Of a stretch of 64,000 bases of DNA, positions 2,004-63,390 are shown piece after piece. The notes under the pieces were generated by a model, which saw only the letters and a program-made list of their open reading frames with translations, was not told the DNA's origin and did no database searches. This stretch comes from an uncultured Spirochaetota bacterium (lineage in GTDB: Bacteria; Spirochaetota; Brevinematia; Brevinematales; JAOACQ01), in the NCBI GenBank assembly GCA_963768055.1, contig CAVYGN010000002.1:1024001-1088000 (forward strand). Reading direction: 5' to 3'. Within the stretch, counting starts at the first letter, position 1. Each line of letters opens with the position of its first letter. Made by a program: the position numbers and the translations under genes.

Positions 2004-2816
2004 AAAAACCTTTTTATGCAATGTTTTCACATGTGTAAATTTTCTAAAATAATCCTCTCTTATTTTCATGAATTTTGACAATAAATATTTAATTCTTTAA
2101 CATTACGCCATAATATTTTGTAGGGTTTTACTTTATCAAAATTGTCTTTATTGAGTACAGGAGTATTAAGTACCAGGTGAAATATTTATCTATTCTTTTT
2201 ATTGATATTTAAATTTTGTGCGGCATATTATAAGGAATATTTTTTAGCTATAATCTGCTGAACAATACTTTCGAGGTAAATATGAAACTAGTTTATTATT
2301 TCATTTCCTTATTCTTTATATTAATTCCAATTACATATGCATATGAACTTACATGTTAACAATACAAACTATACAAATAATTTACAACTTTGTGTAGGTT
2401 TTGAATATATGCATGGTTATGCACTTTATGAAATCGAATTTAATAACCCTATTGTAACAACGCCAAGAAGTGAATTAAAATATCCGGTAAACTTATTTTT
2501 ATTGACTGCTTCTCTTTCCTGGAATTTAAGTGATGAAACAAAACTTCAAATTATCTTAAAGGGTAGTATATCCACAAACACTGGAATATTTGAAGACTAT
2601 GATTGGGGTATTTATTATTATGATTTTCAGGAATCCTGGGCAAGTCCCACCTCTCTTGATTGTTATTCAACAGCTGAAACAACATTGGGATTTTATTCAA
2701 TCGAAGGTTCATTAATTGTCGAGGACCGGGTAGATTCCCCAGTGGCAGGGGCATGAGATTCCCCACCTTTTCCTGAAAAATACCGTTCTTGATTTTAGAG
2801 AGAAATCATAAAACTT

Positions 2817-3563
2817 TCAAATAGTTTTCCCTTCCTTCCGGAAAGATTTTCCATCTTTGGATTTTACCAGGATTTTAATTGAGCCTGAAACAAGGCGGTC
2901 AAGCATAGCCCCTCCAATCACAGGATCAGGGAAGATTGCCAGCCAGTCCTCCGGAGGCCGGTTGCTTGTCAGAATAATGGACCTGTTTCCAAGCCTTTCA
3001 TCGACAATCCGGTATAGGTATTCCGTTTCTTCATTGTCGAGTTTTTTAAATCCGAAATCGTCTATTATCAGGAGGTCTGTTTTAATACACTTTCTGAATA
3101 GAGTATTCTTAAACATAAGCTTTTCGCTTTTCAAGTCTTCAAGAAGAACCGCGGCTTTCTTGAAAAGAACTGTGTTTCCTCTTCTGCAGGCCTCATGGCC
3201 GACTGATTTTGCAATGCATGTTTTACCTATGCCGGGAGGCCCGGCGATGACAACAAACTGTCTCATATCCATGAAACGGCAGGACGCGATTTCACGAATA
3301 AGCCTTGAAGGGATAGCGCTCTCATTGAAATTAAAATCAAACCCCTCGAAAGTGTTTTCCTGGCCGAACTTCGCTTCTCTCAGCCTCTTTTTGAGCATGT
3401 TATTATCCCTCTGGCATAATTCATCCTGAACTAACAAAGAGAAAAATTCTCCATAGTCCAGGTTTGATTCTTGAGCCTCCCTGATCCGCATAGGAAGGTT
3501 GAATAGCATCCCAGGAAGCTTTAACCTCCTTAAGTTTGCCTCAAGCTGATTCTGATGTTCCAT
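2817..3563 (-). CDS. istB: IS21 helper AAA+ ATPase IstB
   Basis: LRRLKLPGM N-terminus, Walker A GPPGIGKT, Walker B LLIIDDFG, TSNR and LDRL motifs. Confidence 0.95.
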   Translation of the reverse strand: MEHQNQLEANLRRLKLPGMLFNLPMRIREAQESNLDYGEFFSLLVQDELCQRDNNMLKKRLREAKFGQENTFEGFDFNFNESAIPSRLIREIASCRFMDMRQFVVIAGPPGIGKTCIAKSVGHEACRRGNTVLFKKAAVLLEDLKSEKLMFKNTLFRKCIKTDLLIIDDFGFKKLDNEETEYLYRIVDERLGNRSIILTSNRPPEDWLAIFPDPVIGGAMLDRLVSGSIKILVKSKDGKSFRKEGKTI

Positions 3564-3581
3564 ATTTCCTCCTCATTATCT

Positions 3582-5123
3582 CTATTGAAAGTAATAGCTG
3601 CCGTCCCTGGTCATTTCAGACCCTTCTTCTGAAATTTCAAACAGGGTGTCCTGTTTATCCTTTCCTTCATTTTCCATCCAGCTTTTGAATAGTTTGGGAT
3701 CGGTTATTTTTGCCGATATTGCTCTTTCACAGACTTTATTAAAGTATTCTTCTTTCGAGAATGTTTCCATTACACTTAAGAACCCCAGGGCCCTCCGGCA
3801 ATTCAGATTAGCATGAACAGCAAGGATTTGAAAGATCAACTGGTATGCGGCTTCTCCGTATTTCCTCGACTGGTCTAATAAATACTTGGGGTATCCCCCG
3901 GATAGCATCTCCCTTGTATTCTCCGGAAAATCAGTCTTTTCATATGCTGCATGTCCTCTTGGTACGACAAATTCCCGGATAAGTTTGTACTGGAAGAAGA
4001 TCTTCACTAAATTGCCGGTTCTCCTGACAAAGACTTCCTCTCCACGATACCTGGGAGGCAGGGAATACCTCTTTTTCTCGAACTGGACAAATTGGTCCGG
4101 GTGTACCTTGGCCTTTTTCCATACGGGAGTCTTAAACCTTTCTTCAGGAAGCTTCTTAAGCAGGGGCTTCTCTATCGTTTCAAATACCTCTATTGGTTTC
4201 AAACCTGTTGTTCCATGGTTCCTCATCCCGTATTCATACCTGCACCATTCCAGAGCTTTGATGTTTAATTCCTTTAACGAGGCTCCGGGATTAAGGGCTT
4301 TAAGTTTTCTGAAAAGCTCTCTGGCAACAGGGACCATTCTCTCTATCTTGGCTTTATCCTTTGGTTTCCTTACCCTGCAAGGATCAAGAAAAGTATTGTA
4401 ATACTCCGCATAATCAGCATATGCCTGATTATATTTAGGATCGTAAAGGTCCGGTGATATGATGCCGGTTTTCAGATTGTCCAGGGATATTCTTACAGGC
4501 ACACCGCCGTAAAACTCCAGCATATCCACATTGCTTTCAACGAATGATTCCTGGTTTTGTGAATAGACATATTGAACAAATGGCAGCCTTGAACTCGACA
4601 TTATTCCGATAAAAGACTGCACGATCTTGTTGTGCCCCAGGTATTCCATTGTGCCGGCCCTGCCGTAGTCAAGCTGGATCTCCTGACCAGGGTTAGTTTC
4701 AATCCGGATGGTTTCCTTTAATTCTTTAGCTGTAAGGCCGCTCTTTATCGAGAATCTCTTGAAACTTGTATAGCTTATGTCCAGATTATGCCTTATACAG
4801 ACAACTTCAAAGGCTGTCTTGGGTTTCATTCCGTTTTTCGGGTCATTTATGAGCCCGTACAGCTCATCTTTATATCGTTCAAGTATGCTTGCCTTATTTT
4901 CATTTTTTGGAGGCCCTACAAAGGGGCGTTTCAGATGGAATTCTTCCCGGCTTATTGTTTCTCCCGCCTTTTCAAAGCCGTAATCGATAATTTTTTGAAT
5001 CGCTAGTCGGACTGTTTTCCTATCCCTGTTTTCCTGTTCGGAAATTTCACTTATGCTTTGATCGGCTTTCCATCGTCTGTAAATGTCATAGTAATCCTGT
5101 TCGTTCATAAATCTGTACCCCAT
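3582..5123 (-). CDS. istA: IS21 DDE transposase IstA
   Basis: PGQEIQLDYG, GGVP...DNLKT, PCRVRKPKDKAKIER, HGTTG and YSLP motifs. Confidence 0.95.
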   Translation of the reverse strand: MGYRFMNEQDYYDIYRRWKADQSISEISEQENRDRKTVRLAIQKIIDYGFEKAGETISREEFHLKRPFVGPPKNENKASILERYKDELYGLINDPKNGMKPKTAFEVVCIRHNLDISYTSFKRFSIKSGLTAKELKETIRIETNPGQEIQLDYGRAGTMEYLGHNKIVQSFIGIMSSSRLPFVQYVYSQNQESFVESNVDMLEFYGGVPVRISLDNLKTGIISPDLYDPKYNQAYADYAEYYNTFLDPCRVRKPKDKAKIERMVPVARELFRKLKALNPGASLKELNIKALEWCRYEYGMRNHGTTGLKPIEVFETIEKPLLKKLPEERFKTPVWKKAKVHPDQFVQFEKKRYSLPPRYRGEEVFVRRTGNLVKIFFQYKLIREFVVPRGHAAYEKTDFPENTREMLSGGYPKYLLDQSRKYGEAAYQLIFQILAVHANLNCRRALGFLSVMETFSKEEYFNKVCERAISAKITDPKLFKSWMENEGKDKQDTLFEISEEGSEMTRDGSYYFQ

Positions 5124-5908
5124 CCATTCCCCTCCGGTTTTTTCCGGAGAGTATGTTTGATTTTTTAGATTCTGAACAGGAAAAGGTGGGTGGGGAATCT
5201 CATGGCCCTATTTTGCCTTTTTACTGGGGAATCTGGGTGGCCCCGGACACATTAATCAACAAATTTGCTTCCTGGAACGATTTTGAATTCTCAAGAAGCC
5301 TTGGATTGATATGTCAATATTACAACTATAATGTTTATAATGACAATGAATCATTTCCTTCAAAGGGAATATATGGTTCAAATGCAATAAATCTTGTCCC
5401 GAATTATGACTTTTCCAGCGGTTTAGGTCTTACTTACCTTCTACAGGAATATATGCCTTATGCGTCATTTATTATCGATTACAATTCACTAAATTTTAAA
5501 ATTAATAGCCTGTTGGGGATTTCACCGGTTTTTTGTTTCGGAACTGACACTCATTATATTAATAATCAAAATGGTGTACCGCAATTGGAAGTTTTCATGC
5601 CGAGTTTTGGGTTAGGTATAATTTCAAGGCTTAGCATCTCGTATTACTTTAGCAGTAATTTTTTTATTAAGCTCAATTTAGAATCTATATATGTATTAAG
5701 CTATGGTTATGATTTTAATAATCAGAATAGCTCCAACATCGAATCTACCAGTCAGGAAAGCCTGCAATTTAATGCGGGAATAAATATAGGAGTCGTATTT
5801 TAATATTTCCAAAACAATTTTGAAACGGTTTTTATTAACTACGATAAATTTCCTAGAATAGTATAAAACGATAAAAATAATTATATAAATAAATTCAATA
5901 TATTTCCT

Positions 5909-6814
5909 CTATAATTCAAAATAGTCATTATCTATTTTTTTAATTTCATACGAATTTACCAATGCAGTGCCAATATTATGTTCAATCATTAATTTACTCA
6001 TTTCCATACCATCGATTAATATTATATTTGCGTCAATTTTTAACACATATTCTTTTGCATCTTTTGTAAAACCTGATGTTGTTATAAAAATTCCTTTTTT
6101 AGCTTTTTTACCTAACAAAGCCCCGGCGAATTTTTGTATTTCAGGCCGTCCAACTACATTATCCCATTTTTTAGCTTGTACATATATTACATCTAAACCC
6201 AATTTATCTTCTTTAATTACACCATCAATTCCTTCATCTCCACTTTTTCCTACTACTTGGCCTGCTTCTTTTAAAGAACCTCCATAACCCATTTTTACTA
6301 ATAAATCCACAACAATTAACTCGAATTTTTTTGAAGTAACGTTCATTAATTTTTCAACCAGTTCTTGTGATAAAGAATTTTTAATTTTTTCATAAGCATA
6401 TTCAATTGATTCTTCCGGGGTTATTGAATCAATGAAATTTGAATCTTCGTAAATTTCTTCTTTATCATTTTTTGAATTTTGAAACTCGTTAAATTCATCA
6501 AACTTTTTTAGATAATCACTATCAATAATTTTAGGATTTTCTTTTAAAACAATTAATCCTCTTTTTGATATTTTAAAAATTGATCTTCCGACCTTTTCAA
6601 GTAATCCCGCTTTAGTTAAATAAGTTTTTGCCCACCCAATTCTATTGTGAAAAGTTGATTGCGTCCCGGAAGGTAGCATTTCGTTTAAATCTTCTTCTGA
6701 TAGTTTAAAATTTATTGATAAATGTTGTCTTACTTCGTTTAAATCATGTTCCTTATTATCAGAAGCAAATTGTAATATAGGAAGCATAAATTCAAAATAT
6801 TTTGGAACAGACAT
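5909..6814 (-). CDS. mrr: Mrr-family type IV restriction endonuclease
   Basis: Mrr N-terminal domain (NRIGWAKTYL); catalytic GDEGIDG...YVQAKKW; FITTS. Confidence 0.93.
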   Translation of the reverse strand: MSVPKYFEFMLPILQFASDNKEHDLNEVRQHLSINFKLSEEDLNEMLPSGTQSTFHNRIGWAKTYLTKAGLLEKVGRSIFKISKRGLIVLKENPKIIDSDYLKKFDEFNEFQNSKNDKEEIYEDSNFIDSITPEESIEYAYEKIKNSLSQELVEKLMNVTSKKFELIVVDLLVKMGYGGSLKEAGQVVGKSGDEGIDGVIKEDKLGLDVIYVQAKKWDNVVGRPEIQKFAGALLGKKAKKGIFITTSGFTKDAKEYVLKIDANIILIDGMEMSKLMIEHNIGTALVNSYEIKKIDNDYFEL

Positions 6815-7065
6815 AAAAATTATCCATATTTTTATTGCAGTTATATTATCATTATAATGATAACAATAATATTATGTAAATATTTTTGAATTTAAAAATT
6901 GAAAATTACGAAGCTGTTTATTAAAGATTATTCCTCAACGTCCTTTGCACCCTCTGCGTTCTCTAACTTTGCGTTCTTCGCGACTTTGCGGTAAACCCCA
7001 TAAAACTAAAAATAATTACGAAAAGCTGCAAAAGAATTATCAAAGAAGAGATTATTCAATCTCTG

Positions 7066-7092
7066 CTCCGCTTCTCCGTGTCTCCCTGTGAA
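7066..7092 (-). repeat. Right inverted repeat of the cassette (pairs with 1977-2003)
   Basis: CTCCGCTTCTCCGTGTCTCCCTGTGAA. Confidence 0.8.
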
Positions 7093-7140
7093 TTTATCCC
7101 TGAAATGTAGTGAGTTATTTATTTAACTATATTGAATTAC

Positions 7141-7635
7141 CTATAATAATTTCTGATAATAGACATTGTCTAAAATTCTTTCGAACTTATGCACCATATT
7201 TTTAAAATAACCGCATTTTATATATGAACTCTTTTCAAACAATTTTATACTTGCTTCATTTTCCGAACATATTCCCGCAATTATAGTTTTTATTCCTTTC
7301 TGTTTGGCTATTTTTTCGAGATATGAAACGGCGGATGTTCCTATCCCCATGTTCGTGTATCCGCTTTTTATGTATATTGTAATTTCATAAGTATATCTAT
7401 AACCGTCTTTTACGCTATAAGGCCTCAGTAGGCAGAATCCGCAAAAAGCCGATTTATAATAAATGCAATAAGCGTATGTTATTGAACTTTCAATATTAAA
7501 ATATGAAATAATTTCCTGTGTTGAAAGGGGTTTAATAAAAGCTATCGCGGTAGAATTTTTGATATAGTAATTGAAAACATCCGAGATATCGTTGTAGTCG
7601 ATCTTTCCCGATTTTTTAAAGGTAATATTATTCAT
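7141..7635 (-). CDS. GNAT-family N-acetyltransferase (phosphinothricin acetyltransferase-like)
   Basis: YRYTYEITIY, GIG acetyl-CoA loop, NEASIKLFEK. Confidence 0.8.
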   Translation of the reverse strand: MNNITFKKSGKIDYNDISDVFNYYIKNSTAIAFIKPLSTQEIISYFNIESSITYAYCIYYKSAFCGFCLLRPYSVKDGYRYTYEITIYIKSGYTNMGIGTSAVSYLEKIAKQKGIKTIIAGICSENEASIKLFEKSSYIKCGYFKNMVHKFERILDNVYYQKLL

Positions 7636-7717
7636 GATCTATACAAACTTAAATTTTCCGAATTGATATCAATCTTTTCATAAAAATCCATAAATACCTC
7701 TTAAGGCAAAAAATCTA

Positions 7718-8356
7718 TTATCTGATAAATATAAAAAGAATAAATCCGGTGACAGCCAGTGAGAAGATTCCAATCAAAATAGATTGAAATTTATTTGTTT
7801 TTAGCGAAGCATATGCTCCAATAGGGAAAAGTATGATGTACCAGGCCAGAGCAATGAACTGATAAATATCGGCGAAAACCCTCCAGAAGCCCGGCCTTGC
7901 TATTATTCCGAGCCATTCTTTTTGTGTTAACAGACCGGTCGCAAACAGAATACTGCCGATTGTTTCCGGAATCCAGGTTAATAGACAGGGAAGCGCGAAA
8001 GCAAAACCCATAACGGCGAGAGTCGAATCAAAAGACCCCTGTCCTATAAAAACTTTGCCGGTTAAATAAATTAATGAAGAAGCAAAAATCCAGCCCATTG
8101 CAAATATCGGCAGTGCAAAAAATATTTCCCAGAAATAATATTTTTCCGCCGGGATATTGATCCAGGCCGGTGTTATTATCTTTGCATTTGATGCGGCCAG
8201 CATTATAACCGTGATGGTGTAAAGAAAGCCGATAATAAGTATAATACAAGCCCCGTATCTCAGGCTGTTTTTGTCTTTTACCAGTTGGTCGAATGTTTTA
8301 TGAGGACGCAGGATTGATCTGAACATGTATTTCAGAAATTTCTTCATGCTTTCCAC
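7718..8356 (-). CDS. Yip1-family membrane protein
   Basis: ILRPHKTF N-terminal motif and about 5 hydrophobic helices. Confidence 0.65.
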   Translation of the reverse strand: MESMKKFLKYMFRSILRPHKTFDQLVKDKNSLRYGACIILIIGFLYTITVIMLAASNAKIITPAWINIPAEKYYFWEIFFALPIFAMGWIFASSLIYLTGKVFIGQGSFDSTLAVMGFAFALPCLLTWIPETIGSILFATGLLTQKEWLGIIARPGFWRVFADIYQFIALAWYIILFPIGAYASLKTNKFQSILIGIFSLAVTGFILFIFIR

Positions 8357-8530
8357 CTTGATTACTAAACTTAATTATTAATTTCAATCAAGTTTTTCCA
8401 AACGACTTCATTATTGCCGCTTTCAATGGTCTATTCATTCATATAACAATTTAAAATCATCACTTACAAATATATTTTCTTCGTGCCGTCCTATTAAATA
8501 AAATTCCTTATTCATAATTATATTATGTTT

Positions 8531-8580
8531 CACAGATAAATCCAATTTTATAATCAGTGCAATCAGTGCGATCTGTAGTT
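8531..8580. repeat. Orphan right-end copy of the CACAGAT triple-repeat family
   Basis: CACAGATAAATCCAA...ATAATCAGTGCAATCAGTGCGATCTGTAGTT aligns with 62629-62678 and 38290-38336. Confidence 0.65.
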
Positions 8581-11858: not shown

Positions 11859-13390
<1,532 letters not shown>

Positions 13391-13640
13391 TTTAGGGAGA
13401 AAAAAAGTCACTGGACTCTCATCATTTATATAAAAATAAAGGATGAATATAAAAAAGGTATCTTGATTTGTTTAACGCAGATCGAGAACAATTCGCCTGT
13501 CAACGTATATAAATCGTTGAGGTTCATCTGAGCTCATTGGGGTAATGAGCTCACGCCGAACTTTTGCGAGGCGTAGAGCGAATTACACCGAAGTTAATGA
13601 GCCAAGCCGAGCAAAGTGAGGCATAAGGCGAATTAACCGA

Positions 13641-13714
13641 GGGTGTATAGCTCAGTTGGTTAGAGCGCAGCCCTGATAAGGCTGAGGTCGGTGGTTCGAA
13701 ACCACCTACACCCA
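13641..13714 (+). tRNA. tRNA-Ile(GAT)
   Basis: Cloverleaf with anticodon loop CTGATAA and T loop GTTCGAAAC; CCA not encoded. Confidence 0.95.
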
Positions 13715-13765
13715 ACCCCTCACAAGGTGAGGAGCGTACTTGATCGCATATGCGCTCAAGCACGG

Positions 13766-13838
13766 GGGGGTGTAGCTCAGCTGGGAGAGCGCCTGCCTTG
13801 CAAGCAGGATGTCAGGGGTTCGATTCCCCTCATCTCCA
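13766..13838 (+). tRNA. tRNA-Ala(TGC)
   Basis: Cloverleaf with anticodon loop CTTGCAA and G3:U70 pair; CCA not encoded. Confidence 0.95.
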
Positions 13839-13910
13839 GGCAAGAAACAAAGAAAAGAAAAGAATAGGAAAGAAAAAGAAAGAAAAGCGGTTATAGGAAT
13901 AAGGTAAGAA

Positions 13911-16803
<2,893 letters not shown>

Positions 16804-16834
16804 TTCTTTCCTTTATTCTTATATCGTTTTATTT

Positions 16835-16940
16835 GCTCTCGACCATAGCGCAGGTGTTACACCCGGTCCCATTCCGAACCCGGAAGTTAAGCCCTGCGTC
16901 GCCGATGATACTCGTTTCGGGGAAAGTAGGTGTCGAGAGC
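16835..16940 (+). rRNA. rrf: 5S rRNA (short, about 106 nt)
   Basis: CCCATTCCGAACCCGGAAGTTAAG core; helix I GCTCTCGAC/GTCGAGAGC. Confidence 0.92.
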
Positions 16941-16976
16941 TTTTTTTATTTATTTTAAGACAAAAAGAGGAAAAAT

Positions 16977-36355: not shown

Positions 36356-36620
36356 TTAAAGACAATAAGCAATTCATATGAAGTTAATTTTTTTATGCGT
36401 GTTATGAGCAAGCGTAAGAACTGCCGCTGAAAAACTGGAGCAAGCGCTTATCCAAGGCCGCTCGATGTATTTAATCATCTCATATTGATAAAAAAACTCA
36501 TTTTTTAATAAAAGAATTCCATCAGCGCTTGCAACAGTTTTGAAACGATGCAGTTCAAGCTTGCAAATTCAGCGCAGTAAAAAAATTAGCTTCATGAAAA
36601 GATCTGTATATTGTCTTTAA
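36356..36620. repeat. Palindromic dispersed element of about 265 bp (MITE-like), copy 1
   Basis: Terminal IR TTAAAGACAATA/TATTGTCTTTAA; homologous to the reverse complement of 49970-50223. Confidence 0.75.
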
Positions 36621-37573
36621 TAAGGATCCCACTCGCAGTCGTAAAAATCTTCAGGCTTGGTCCTTTCCCACCTTCCATGGCCCAAAGAAAACCATTGATC
36701 GGGGTATTCCAGTATTATTCTCTCATACTGTTTATTAATCCATGTTATTATTTCGGCGCAATCTTTTTCTATATTGCCTGAGGGGGGAAAAGATACAGGT
36801 TCTTCATACCTTAAAATATATTTACCGTCGGGCCGCCTTATGCTGAAAGCCATTAAGATCGGCGCGCCGTATTGGAGATGGAATCTCGCGGGACCGTCGG
36901 CGGTAGCAGCGGGAAGTCCGAAGAAAGGAACGAAGATCGGCTTGAAATAGTATGTCTGGTCGTTAACGAAAGCGACGGCGCCTCCCTTTTTTATATGTTT
37001 CATTATTTTCTTAAGGTCCCCGATTTCATTATAAAAATTCTTCATCTTGGTATATTTTTCCCTGAAATTCTTAAGCCAGGCATCGGTGTAGGGATTGAAC
37101 TGCCTGTTTATGATGACCGCAACGTCCTTCCCGAGTAAAGCAGGGATCCCGCCGAGATAATCCCAGTTGCCCATATGTGCGGTAACGACGATCAATCCTT
37201 TGCCGAGGGCAAGAGCTTTTTCTACATTTTCAAAACCCTCGAGTACGGCGAATTTTTTGTAGGTTTTGATGCTCAGATCCCTTAGTTTAATAAATTCCAT
37301 ACTCCACCTGACAACTGACAAATATAGATTTTTAACGATTTCAACTTTCCTGGTTTCCGGCAGGGGGGGCTCTTTATAAATGACATCGAGACTCTTGAAA
37401 GAAAGCTTCTTGAAGCTCAAGGGCAGAACATAAAGAAATTTTGCGATCAGATCTCCTACAAAATATAAGATCCTTCTCGGTATAAGACTGAGCATAAAAG
37501 CAAGAGGAACGACGATAATATATTCCAGGATATATAAAAATCGCTGAAATCCGCCGATTTTACGCTTCGCCAA
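36617..37573 (-). CDS. Lipid A late acyltransferase (LpxL/HtrB family)
   Basis: GKGLIVVTAHMGNWD, NDQ, VPFFG, YPDQW. Confidence 0.88.
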   Translation of the reverse strand: MAKRKIGGFQRFLYILEYIIVVPLAFMLSLIPRRILYFVGDLIAKFLYVLPLSFKKLSFKSLDVIYKEPPLPETRKVEIVKNLYLSVVRWSMEFIKLRDLSIKTYKKFAVLEGFENVEKALALGKGLIVVTAHMGNWDYLGGIPALLGKDVAVIINRQFNPYTDAWLKNFREKYTKMKNFYNEIGDLKKIMKHIKKGGAVAFVNDQTYYFKPIFVPFFGLPAATADGPARFHLQYGAPILMAFSIRRPDGKYILRYEEPVSFPPSGNIEKDCAEIITWINKQYERIILEYPDQWFSLGHGRWERTKPEDFYDCEWDPY

Positions 37574-37694: not shown

Positions 37695-38336
37695 AACCAC
37701 AGATTAACACAGATATACACAGATATCTTTGAAATCAATATTTAATAATTCCCATCAAATCAAAAAGAAAAACTTTAATTGATAATAAAACAATATTAAA
37801 ATATACTGTTATAAAGTTAGTGTATAAAAGGAATTTAATATGAGTAAAAAAAATAAGAAAGATAATTTAGAATTACTATATCCAGGTTGTATTGACGATT
37901 TAAGAAATTACAAAAATCAATTTTGGTATTTGAATTATTATAGTTTTTTAATTTTTGGTGTGATTTATTGGGTTTATGATTTTTTAAATAAAAAATATCC
38001 ACAGTCTTTGATTTTACTTTTTTTAATCTTGATAATATTTTCTAAAATATTTGCTTTAATCATCTACATCCATATGAAATTGAGGGAATCTTTAAAAGAC
38101 AATAGAAAATGGATAAAATTAATAAGAGAACAACTAAGTATCAAACCTCTTGATGAAAAAGATTCAATAAATTTTAATAGAAACAGTTTTTCTATAGAAA
38201 ATATATTTTTAATAATTTTAATTCTTGGGTTTTTATTAAGTGTTTTTTTAATAATTATAAATTTTGCATAATAATTATTAAAAGATTTCACTGATATCAC
38301 AAATTATAATCTGTCCCATCTGTGAAATCTGTGGTT
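37695..38336. mobile_element. Putative cassette bounded by inverted CACAGAT triple repeats
   Basis: AACCACAGATTAACACAGATATACACAGAT ... AATCTGTCCCATCTGTGAAATCTGTGGTT around one AT-rich gene. Confidence 0.6.
37840..38271 (+). CDS. AT-rich hypothetical membrane protein with about 3 TM helices (cassette cargo)
   Basis: 143-aa ORF with its own TTGATA-N17-TATACT promoter at 37779-37807. Confidence 0.65.
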   Translation: MSKKNKKDNLELLYPGCIDDLRNYKNQFWYLNYYSFLIFGVIYWVYDFLNKKYPQSLILLFLILIIFSKIFALIIYIHMKLRESLKDNRKWIKLIREQLSIKPLDEKDSINFNRNSFSIENIFLIILILGFLLSVFLIIINFA

Positions 38337-38424
38337 CCGATCCTTTTTCCGTTTATTCGTTTTAATACTTGAAATTAATCGTCTAATATGATAAAATCTT
38401 TCACCCTATTTGATGGAGGAAAGC

Positions 38425-39177
38425 ATGTCAGGTCATAATAAATGGGCCAATATCAAGCAAAGGAAAGGCTCACAGGACGCCAAGCGCAGCAATCTTTTTT
38501 CAAAAATCGTTAAAGAAATAATTATTTCTGCGAGGCGAGGCGGCGGCAACATCGATACAAACGCACCGCTACGGACTGCTGTCGAAAAAGCCAGGGAAGC
38601 AAATATGCCCAAGGATAATATCGATAAAGCCATCAAAAGGGGAACCGGTGAAATCGAAGGTGTCGTCTACGAAGAATTGACATACGAAGGTTACGGGCCC
38701 GGCGGTGTAGCAGTGATCATGGATATTACAACAGATAGTAAAAACAGAACGGCTGCTGAAATAAGGAAAATTTTCTCGAAGCATGGCGGCAACCTCGGTG
38801 AATCCGGGAGTGTGGCATGGATGTTTGATAAAAAAGGGTATATAGCTGTCGACGGGACCAAGCATACCGAGGATGAAATTATGGAAATCGGCCTTGAACT
38901 TGGTGCCGATGACATTAAGAAAAATGAGGACGTTATTGAAGTTTTAACAGCTGTGGAAAGTTATAATCATATACTTGACGGATTAAAGAAAAAAAACATT
39001 ATTATTCTTTCATCCGAGGTTACACGAATACCTCAGAATATGATTAAGCTTGAAAGAGATAAATCTATGTCTTTATTAAAATTGATGGATGAACTTGAAA
39101 ATCATGACGACATTCAAAATGTTGCGTCCAACGCAGACATTGAAGACAGTGTTATAGAGGAATTTGCAGATCTCTAA
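38425..39177 (+). CDS. yebC: YebC/PmpR family protein
   Basis: MSGHNKWANIK, YEGYGPGG, NRT. Confidence 0.95.
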   Translation: MSGHNKWANIKQRKGSQDAKRSNLFSKIVKEIIISARRGGGNIDTNAPLRTAVEKAREANMPKDNIDKAIKRGTGEIEGVVYEELTYEGYGPGGVAVIMDITTDSKNRTAAEIRKIFSKHGGNLGESGSVAWMFDKKGYIAVDGTKHTEDEIMEIGLELGADDIKKNEDVIEVLTAVESYNHILDGLKKKNIIILSSEVTRIPQNMIKLERDKSMSLLKLMDELENHDDIQNVASNADIEDSVIEEFADL

Positions 39178-62408: not shown

Positions 62409-62678
62409 AACCACAGATTACACGGATTTCACTGATATTTTCTGTGAAATTAGTTTGAATTTTTTGTTGTAATTGTCTAATCATAATATGTAAAAATCAG
62501 GTGAAAATAAATCGATAAATTATTTCATATTCTTTGAGTCCTTTACATTTTTTTCATTTCTTATGATTAAAAGACTTTAAGAACGTAACGACTATAAAAA
62601 ATCTAAATTCTTTAATTATTAATGATTGCACAGATAATTCCAAAATAATAATCTGTGCCATCTGAGAAATCTGTGGTT
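62409..62678. mobile_element. Putative empty or decayed cassette bounded by inverted CACAGAT triple repeats
   Basis: AACCACAGATTACACGGATTTCACTGAT ... AATCTGTGCCATCTGAGAAATCTGTGGTT around AT-rich DNA with no long ORF. Confidence 0.6.
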
Positions 62679-62738: not shown

Positions 62739-63164
62739 ATGGTAAAAGAAGGTGAGAGGGCCCCGGATTTCAAGCTTCCGGCTGATGACGGTTCTTTTGT
62801 ATCGCTTTCAGATTTTAAGGGTAAGAAGGTCGTATTATATTTTTATCCGAAAGACGATACCCCGGGCTGTACTAAAGAGGCCTGTTCTTTTAGGGATTCT
62901 AACGACCTGTTCATTGAAAAAGGGGCTGCAGTGATAGGAGTCAGCGCCGATGACAGCCAGTCGCACAAGAATTTCCGCAATAAATACAACCTGCCCTTTT
63001 ATCTGCTCTCGGACGCGGGGCATAAAGTAATGGAGGCATACGGCGCCTGGGTTGAAAAAACTATCCGTTCCACATTCATCATTGATGAAAAGGGCAATGT
63101 AATAAAGGTGTTTCCACAGGTAAATCCTGAAAAACATGCCGACGAGGTCCTTAAATTTCTTTAG
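62739..63164 (+). CDS. bcp: Peroxiredoxin BCP
   Basis: YFYPKDDTPGCTKEAC. Confidence 0.93.
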   Translation: MVKEGERAPDFKLPADDGSFVSLSDFKGKKVVLYFYPKDDTPGCTKEACSFRDSNDLFIEKGAAVIGVSADDSQSHKNFRNKYNLPFYLLSDAGHKVMEAYGAWVEKTIRSTFIIDEKGNVIKVFPQVNPEKHADEVLKFL

Positions 63165-63390
63165 GGCAGTTCTAATAACTCAAGAATTTTGCCCTTACAG
63201 GACAAGCCCTTTGCATTAACAATCTATCATTTAACTCTATATGCACTTGTGCCCGTTAGGGTATGCCCTATGGGGGCTTCCTATCCGAAGGGCCGAAGGT
63301 ACCCGGAGGGTATATTAAATGCGCCCTGTAAATAAATTGATATTTCAATACTATTGTTATAGAATTTACTCCTTTGAATCGAGAGGGAGT

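Follow-up and report, generated by a model that had tools for sequence, protein, structure and literature searches.

Positions 37695-38336 of a 64,000-nucleotide stretch of DNA from an uncultured Spirochaetota bacterium (the whole stretch, hereafter the window) hold a cassette-like segment of 642 bases with one orphan membrane-protein gene. The segment lies between two core genes and corresponds to C2:1061695-1062336 of the genome under study (G000; 3.69 Mb in two contigs, C1 and C2, 94.75% complete). Its inverted ends belong to a dispersed family of repeats built from CACNGAT words, with two end types that we label P and T and that were separated by profile searches (nhmmer P and T models). 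The features of the locus are as follows.

36617-37573, minus strand: lipid A biosynthesis acyltransferase, flanking core gene (PF03279, E 4.7e-35)
37695-37757, plus strand: P-type end module with AACC, three CACAGAT words repeating every 10 bp (37698-37724), the inverted partial word TTTGAAATC and a tail rich in A and T
37779-37807, plus strand: TTGATA-17-TATACT, a promoter-like site that precedes the cargo open reading frame (ORF) by about 30 nt; 10/12 matches in a consensus scan, a pattern match only
37840-38271, plus strand: cargo ORF of 143 aa for an orphan small membrane protein with two hydrophobic stretches
38272-38343, minus strand: T-type end module with (GGATCGG)AACC, three words at a 9-bp period, a spacer and an inverted word ATCAGTGAAATC folding back on word 2
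38425-39177, plus strand: YebC/TACO1, flanking core gene (PF01709, E 1.6e-56)

Each inverted end of the focal cassette consists of AACC followed by three CACNGAT words 9-10 bp apart. The left end reads AACCACAGATTAACACAGATATACACAGAT at 37695-37724 and the right end, as the reverse complement of 38308-38336, AACCACAGATTTCACAGATGGGACAGATT, confirming the inverted CACAGAT triple repeats by which an earlier note on this DNA had bounded the segment. The left end scored 38 bits with the P model versus 14 bits with the T model, and the right end 58 bits with T versus 33 with P. On the YebC side the end continues for at least 7 nt past GGTT (CCGATCC), an extension not seen in the corresponding intergenic sequences of the same-genus genomes (congeners) G002, G001 and G004. 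The T module has a predicted local DNA hairpin of -8.2 kcal/mol (z -2.8), and a search of the cassette against Rfam families gave no match. Promoter-like sites of the acyltransferase (37639-37611) and of YebC (38369-38397) both lie outside the cassette. DNA matches to the stretch comprising the cassette and both flanking genes were obtained in 31/31 relatives, the listed matches falling in the flanking genes.

The interior of the cassette has 20% G+C compared with 41% in the flanks, a composition in which a 143-codon open frame would arise by chance with a probability of about 5e-7 by our own arithmetic. Two strongly hydrophobic 19-residue stretches lie within residues 52-81 and 115-143 of the predicted protein. 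Among 5.8 billion proteins its only match was to itself, no Pfam or PADLOC family matched it, and it bears no significant likeness to the 117-aa membrane cargo of the element at C1:462878.

The focal ends are part of a genome-wide family. The exact sequence AACCACAGAT occurs 50 times in the genome versus 8.6 times expected from base composition, and the pattern ACAGAT-N2-4-CACNGAT-N2-4-CACNGAT occurs 21 times, versus 0 for the same pattern read backwards. Successive CACNGAT words start 9 bp (52 cases) or 10 bp (15 cases) apart, distances at which a reversed control word was not found at all. The earlier note had called the repeats helically phased, which is inexact because the period is 9-10 bp: the spacing itself is borne out, whereas phasing to a 10.5-bp helical turn is not, most steps being 9 bp. 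As that note had anticipated, the ends are paired across the genome, in 21 inverted pairs that span 57 bp to 11.5 kb.

An end module measures about 65-85 bp and comprises AACC, three 7-nt CACNGAT words with a 9-10 bp period, an inverted word and an AT-rich tail. The P end reads roughly AACCACAGATTtCACaGATTtCACgGAT-n-TTTTCTGTGAAATCCATATAAAATTAT and the T end roughly (cGGATyGG)AACCACAGATTtCACtGATGGCACAGATTattATTTTGGAAttATCaGTGAAATCAT; both have three outward words and one inverted word able to fold back locally. When an end type was counted as clear only if both ends of a pair were typed by at least 8 bits, each of the 12 clearly typed pairs joined one P end and one T end (12/12). A left end can therefore be told from a right end in these elements, as in transposons and att sites, and the ends, although inverted as had been claimed, belong to two different sequence types instead of simply mirroring each other. 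Conservation of the inner parts of both modules reaches up to the cargo even between copies with unrelated cargo. Within the T module an inward promoter-like site is modestly conserved, with a mean best score of 9.1/12 versus 8.0 in shuffles and the same position in 8/15 ends. A variant end carries a small GC-rich hairpin (AAGCCCTGTAAGGGTT-like) between words 1 and 2, at C1:448986, C1:468515, C1:1305621, C2:177172, C2:348620 and C2:1357836.

The two arms of an element show no greater complementarity than arms drawn from different elements. In G000 the cognate mean was 15.7 versus 17.2 for arms of other elements (n=15, p=0.98), and among foldbacks from other phyla the values were 18.4 versus 17.9 (n=29, p=0.10). 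This lack of extra complementarity speaks against a selected long stem, as an RNase III or intervening-sequence scheme would have it, and favours recognition of the words themselves. The short copies are predicted to fold well.

The 21 pairs enclose the following contents.

3 pairs: GxxExxY nuclease (PF13366, E 4e-37)
10 pairs: other ORFs of about 90 aa or more
6 pairs: no gene (57-295 bp)
2 pairs: later insertions of other mobile DNA

Among the ten pairs with other ORFs are the focal orphan, a second small membrane protein, an ankyrin protein, a D12 methylase fragment, further orphans, two members of one small-protein family whose N-terminus matches Hol_Tox marginally, and a Septu-like defence pair (PtuA, 8e-68; PtuB, 2e-9). 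The Septu-like pair is complete, with PtuA followed by the PtuB/HNH gene, and lies between T and P ends at C1:1098735-1100929. In all, the same ends hold at least 12 different cargoes in G000 and can therefore serve as a handle for finding the mobile accessory genes of uncultured bacteria. The G+C fraction is 0.20-0.31 in 13 of the 19 pairs for which it was computed and 0.36-0.41 in the rest, and that of the flanks is 0.39-0.47. In agreement with the variable cargo proposed earlier, interiors are mutually unrelated except for a GxxExxY pair (79% nucleotide identity) and the one small-protein family.

Cargo orientation is not fixed relative to the ends. The elements C2:83469-84219 and C2:149579-150179 have both end modules in the same orientation and homologous cargo inverted between them; some exchange or inversion therefore occurs at the inner edge of the modules. 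Both cases of later insertion involve recognizable mobile DNA. In C1:109473-112477 an IS21 element has its own ends 272 and 144 bp inside the CACAGAT ends, and the other copies of this IS21 have no CACAGAT ends. The second case is an 11.5-kb AT-rich island (C1:1371986-1383529) bounded by T and P ends, which encodes a tyrosine integrase with an Arm-DNA-bind_5 domain (E 6e-30 and 2e-10), an HTH_17 excisionase-like gene, a Phage_CRI-type Rep and a PLD nuclease and contains two IS3 copies. A search of the island for a direct-repeat att core returned only a 12-nt AT-rich match. The left part of the island holds a remnant of the small-protein cargo family, and the island is therefore read as an older small cassette where other elements landed, which suggests that the integrase element inserted inside it. 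In another phylum, an apparent 1.3-kb cargo at locus L048, lying between two single ends, is judged from its sequence to be probably a core peptidase gene and was left out of the cargo count.

Comparison with the four congeners (G001-G004) showed insertion polymorphism of these elements. At the focal site G001, G002 and G004 have a short acyltransferase-yebC spacer with no cassette. G003 has a different cassette there, a GxxExxY gene with arms of the word CGCAGAT, followed by a TonB-dependent receptor gene. The left arm of this G003 cassette (L013:1191-1830, contig C3) is translated as a protein N-terminus (PQIAQIYAE). The check at orthologous sites suggested by the earlier note thus found the focal cassette absent in three same-genus genomes and another repeat-armed cassette at the site in the fourth. 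For each of the nine informative CACAGAT elements, among them the focal one, at least one same-genus genome lacks the element at the corresponding site, and ends and cargo are absent together at 9/9 of these sites. The eight further elements with an empty congener site are listed below.

C2:78844
C2:83469
C2:302887
C2:197223
C1:1324998
C1:1339925
the 11.5-kb island
window 62409

The same element at the same site was found in no congener among the sites compared, and the island site is empty in all four. Spacers at empty sites measure 0-185 bp at most sites and 275 bp at C2:302887. The insertions occupy tiny intergenic spacers, often directly after stop codons of convergent or co-directional genes, and leave genes and promoters unbroken. 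Three of the nine sites hold something else repeat-armed in one congener: besides the G003 cassette at the focal site, there are two G004 cases. Where G000 has a 751-bp cassette (C2:83469), G004 (C2:138570-139180) has an approximately 190-bp foldback of the related word CACAGAAT (AGCCACGGAATATCACAGAAT...); at another site it shows an end-like match inside a 539-bp gap. The GxxExxY cassette with CACAGAGG arms is at its site in none of the four congeners, and a GxxExxY cassette copy of 83% identity occupies a non-syntenic place in G004 (flanking core genes, 66-77% identical). The Septu cassette sits exactly at a gene-order break relative to all four congeners and C1:462878 also lies at such a break, so their orthologous sites are uninformative. 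Because the relatives are only about 75% identical (70-80%), junctions could not be placed to the exact base and no exact junction or target duplication was definable.

The ends extend far beyond this genus. A 28-nt end pattern, AACCACAGATTNCACNGATNNCACNGAT, was sought letter for letter in a collection of species-representative genomes and found in at least 123 stretches from more than 15 phyla. Hosts include Planctomycetota, Chloroflexota, Bacteroidota, Verrucomicrobiota, Acidobacteriota, NC10, Proteobacteria, Firmicutes, Spirochaetes and one Thermoplasmatota archaeon. In viral contigs the end pattern turned up in only 14 stretches. The isolates Asticcacaulis sp. W401b and Solimonas marina C16B3 carry CACAGAT foldbacks together with PF13366 genes. 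Outside G000 the ends are mostly gene-less foldbacks of 60-150 bp: 52 of 92 ends have a partner within 1.5 kb, nearly all with no ORF between, and those of G004 are likewise mostly gene-less foldbacks. Among 30 near relatives, only G004 (31 arrays, 9 PF13366 matches) resembles G000.

The earlier note mentioned similar repeats near GxxExxY-family genes in other bacteria, and this link holds: PF13366 genes co-occur with the word arrays. All five PF13366 genes of G000 lie between inverted word arrays, of CACAGAT for three (one of them at C1:1510213-1510590) and of CACAGAGG and CGCAAAG for the others. The arms of the focal cassette are the same word arms as those of the three, with the 7-nt word and the 9-10 bp period. 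Ten genomes from across the phyla with the end pattern, chosen blind to gene content, all had a PF13366 gene (10/10), and about 17 of the 20 genes inspected, out of 29 PF13366 matches in these genomes, stood between inverted word arrays by our reading. The words around them vary and include CACGAAx, CGCGGAG, CGCTGAT, CATGAAG, CACAGAT and others. Within the phylum, a test of 200 other genomes found PF13366 in 10/13 array-bearing genomes versus 41/187 others (odds ratio 11.9, one-sided Fisher p 8e-5, uncorrected for kinship). In G000 and in many phyla, the GxxExxY PD-(D/E)XK nuclease is the usual passenger of this element family. The protein has about 125 aa, and its catalytic motif residues G28, E31, Y34, D71, E81 and K83 are invariant in 20 sequences. 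A structure model (pLDDT 92.7) resembles most closely Cas4 SSO0001 and other minimal nucleases of the PD-(D/E)XK fold; by sequence, the nuclease matched no solved structure.

On balance, we read the focal segment as a lineage-specific insertion, a non-autonomous derivative of the GxxExxY-associated mobile family in which the nuclease gene has been replaced by other cargo. The derivative would be non-autonomous in that its cargo is an orphan and not PF13366. Under this reading the GxxExxY nuclease would be the family's own enzyme and would recognize the CACNGAT words, acting in trans on word arrays to move or copy elements, and cargo may be swapped through recombination at the module edges that face it. 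A wider proposal, which we put forward tentatively and with clearly less confidence, is that a domain-wide class of mobile DNA uses the arrays as its working ends and is driven by this stand-alone nuclease of approximately 125 aa. In the present spirochaete lineage the ends would then have turned into portable docking modules that shuttle arbitrary genes between intergenic spacers, the Septu-like pair and orphan membrane proteins among them, as an integron-free cassette system.

Several observations weigh against assigning the focal segment to a nuclease-driven family. The three CACAGAT-armed nucleases of G000, which fall into two lineages, share only 35-37% identity, and the nucleases with other words share 53%; protein similarity therefore does not track the word. 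Only 4/10 of the cross-phylum genomes showed a PF13366 gene with CACAGAT arms, with 20 of 29 matches inspected. Within the phylum, no PF13366 was found in 3/13 array-bearing genomes, and a genome with 8 arrays yielded only a match below threshold. Gene and arms travel together, so that their co-occurrence would also be expected if the nuclease were merely the commonest passenger. No interior has a second genome copy at 90% identity or above, and hence there is no sign of a recent burst. No target duplication was visible at four junction comparisons, in which junctions are inexact at 70-80% identity. Finally, contigs from three sequencing runs, short and of low depth and with the AT-rich interior uncovered, span both focal junctions; none skips the cassette and no joint, circle or empty site was found among them. 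No excised or circular form appeared in these data; the earlier note had proposed a search of reads for circular junctions.

Other explanations account for parts of the same evidence. Capture might need no dedicated enzyme if a gene-less foldback breaks at its centre, through cutting of a hairpin or cruciform by host nucleases, and foreign AT-rich DNA is joined in, or else exchanged as the 65-85 bp modules undergo homologous recombination, GxxExxY being just a frequent passenger. Gene-less foldbacks do prevail outside G000 and in G004, the 57-bp copy has a strong predicted fold (-19.8 kcal/mol, z -7.1), cargo lies in either orientation, IS21 and the integrase element with its two IS3 copies have entered cassettes, and target duplication was not seen. 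Random breakage, however, should erode the inner words unevenly, and the inner parts of both modules are conserved up to unrelated cargo; moreover, the ends are heterotypic in 12/12 pairs and the association with PF13366 is left unexplained. We regard enzyme-free capture as unlikely. Gene capture by site-specific recombination, the reading offered by the earlier note, fits the cargo pattern and is partly supported in that respect. It would make the words arm-type sites of a tyrosine or other recombinase encoded elsewhere, and the cassettes units with no integrase of their own that are moved in trans, much as integron cassettes or cis-mobilisable elements are. Three phased words in two distinct ends indeed resemble attL and attR arm sites, and the T- and P-bounded 11.5-kb island, not in any of the four congeners, has both a tyrosine integrase with its Arm-DNA-bind_5 domain and an HTH_17 excisionase-like gene. 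Against this, the ends are inverted, with the 12-nt AT-rich match as the longest direct-repeat core, and the cargo remnant in the island suggests that the integrase landed in an older cassette. Homologues of the integrase (69-75% nucleotide identity) occur in the array-free G002 and also in G004, there away from any array. The best scores for an integron integrase, 87.8 bits in G000 and 127 bits in G004, fall below the TIGR02249 cut-off of 265, and across phyla only PF13366 was seen recurring in or beside arrays, a survey in which integrases were not searched for. As an account of the whole family we find such a recombinase still harder to credit than enzyme-free capture.

The elements could, in principle, be miniature inverted-repeat transposable elements (MITEs) or passenger-carrying derivatives of a DDE insertion sequence whose terminal repeats hold several transposase sites, as in IS21, Tn7 and Mu. 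In line with such a derivation are the inverted repeats at the termini, accompanied by several subterminal ones, the two distinct ends, and a genome with active-looking IS21 (10 copies) and IS3 (at least 17 copies at 99.8% identity or above). Yet the IS21 ends stand inside the CACAGAT ends of the one cassette this element interrupts, and these ends are absent from its other copies. Apart from secondary insertions, no transposase was found between end pairs in the copies examined; interiors are unrelated, unlike those of a MITE burst, target duplication was not seen, and a search of 72,556 plasmid records with the T end gave no match. The earlier statement that the ends are not attC-like and that no IS is present finds support in that neither an integron integrase above cut-off nor a Y1/RAYT transposase was found and the IS21 ends differ. 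We consider descent from an insertion sequence improbable. Most improbable of all, in our estimate, is that the arrays are not mobile themselves and serve as regulatory protein-binding sites or as RNA stems processed like 23S rRNA intervening sequences, with differences in cargo reflecting ordinary island turnover. The modestly conserved inward promoter-like site of the T module is compatible with a regulatory role. Arms of one element nevertheless show no co-variation, no Rfam family matches, no intervening sequence interrupts the 23S gene of the window, no S23p gene (PF05635) was found in G000, and ends and cargo are missing together at 9/9 informative sites. Collectively, we retain a lineage-specific, non-autonomous member of the GxxExxY-associated family as the preferred description of the focal segment.

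Further ends and other repeats are present in the window. Both additional occurrences of the family that had been noted previously were found again, the single end with one mismatch.

62409-62678, plus strand: second family member of 270 bp with no gene, 25% G+C, P end left and T end right
8510-8580, minus strand: single T-type end AACTACAGAT with one mismatch and words CACTGAT, at the right edge of an AT-rich stretch (5250-8580) that starts at an IS21 copy; this end had been reported at 8531-8580

The element at 62409-62678 carries the same termini as the focal cassette and has no ORF of 60 codons; G001, G002 and G003 lack it at this site and have a spacer of 0-29 bp there. The stretch 5250-8580 (27-31% G+C), between the IS21 copy and the single T-type end, encodes an Mrr-type restriction endonuclease (5909-6814, E 1.8e-35), a GNAT acetyltransferase and a Yip1-domain protein, and may be a large cassette with its other end lost. 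The adjoining IS21-family element (2717-5249; C2:1026717-1029249) is about 2.6 kb long, with IstA of 513 aa and IstB of 248 aa, and is one of 10 near-identical genome copies. The IS3-family element measures about 1.6 kb, and G003 has many copies of it at 86-90% identity. A complete rRNA operon (16S, two tRNAs, 23S, 5S) occupies 11859-16941, and the near-match AACCACAGGT at 14714 inside the 23S gene appears to be due to chance. At 63157-63336 lies a short intergenic repeat unrelated to the CACAGAT ends, with copies at C1:39358, C2:76492, C2:381776 and C1:1255103, which is not at the same site in G001 and G002.

PF13366/GxxExxY is a large, cross-domain family that one source gives as 'function unknown' (PMC3424549). 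In the literature searched, which covered few subscription journals, the family appeared only as 'unknown' in a table or in passing, and no description of the word arrays or cassettes was found; within that coverage, the earlier note's label of a candidate undescribed system fits. A DNA partner that is identical to the letter across phyla provides this protein family with a directly testable substrate. Should the ends indeed shuttle cargo, they would offer a route for cassette-style gene flow independent of integrons and would account for orphan and defence genes in 0-30 bp spacers between core genes that are left undisturbed.

Several known systems share features with these elements. Like integron cassettes, they are mostly single-gene units with AAC...GTT termini and a promoter of no known origin, their cargo is orphan, toxin-like or defensive, and their content varies between close relatives. 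An attC site is one imperfect palindrome of 55-141 bp located 3' of the gene. The analogue of the recombination site here is, in contrast, split into two different modules that flank the gene, and copies are dispersed singly and form no array beside an attI. With MITEs and passenger-carrying IS derivatives, for example the Correia and Nezha elements, the family shares its non-autonomous nature, inverted-repeat boundaries, intergenic location and polymorphic insertion. It differs from them in end sequences conserved over more than 15 phyla, in unrelated interiors, in the lack of any target duplication seen, and in that a comparison with the IS21 of the genome found no matching autonomous IS. 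Ends with several phased binding sites are known from Tn7, Mu and IS21, and tyrosine integrases have arm-type sites. Three direct short repeats about one helical turn apart in two non-identical ends recall these arrangements, although none of the corresponding enzymes is linked to the ends here and the termini are AACC...GGTT and not TG...CA.

Subterminal hairpins and distinct ends are also reminiscent of single-strand transposons of the IS200/IS605 type, whose Y1 TnpA (PF01797) was not found in G000. The same Y1/HUH family includes the RAYT transposases and gave 0 matches in this genome. The Coxiella intervening sequence of 23S rRNA (PMC4990558) carries an S23p/four-helix-bundle ORF. It offers a parallel in its small ORF within inverted repeats and in its behaviour as a selfish insertion; the present elements differ from it in not residing in rRNA and in having arms that are not kept complementary. 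A further comparison is the REPIN/RAYT system, in which REP doublets are served by a REP-associated tyrosine transposase (Bertels & Rainey 2011, PMC3116915). Unlike in that system, the associated protein here has a PD-(D/E)XK fold, the arms are arrays of 7-nt words with a 9-10 bp period and not REP palindromes, the arms do not co-vary, and copies carry unrelated passenger genes. What the two have in common is short extragenic inverted repeats dispersed in the genome, gene-less copies that far outnumber gene-carrying ones, a small enzyme gene that is itself enclosed by the repeats, and several repeat families per genome, each around its own copy of the gene.

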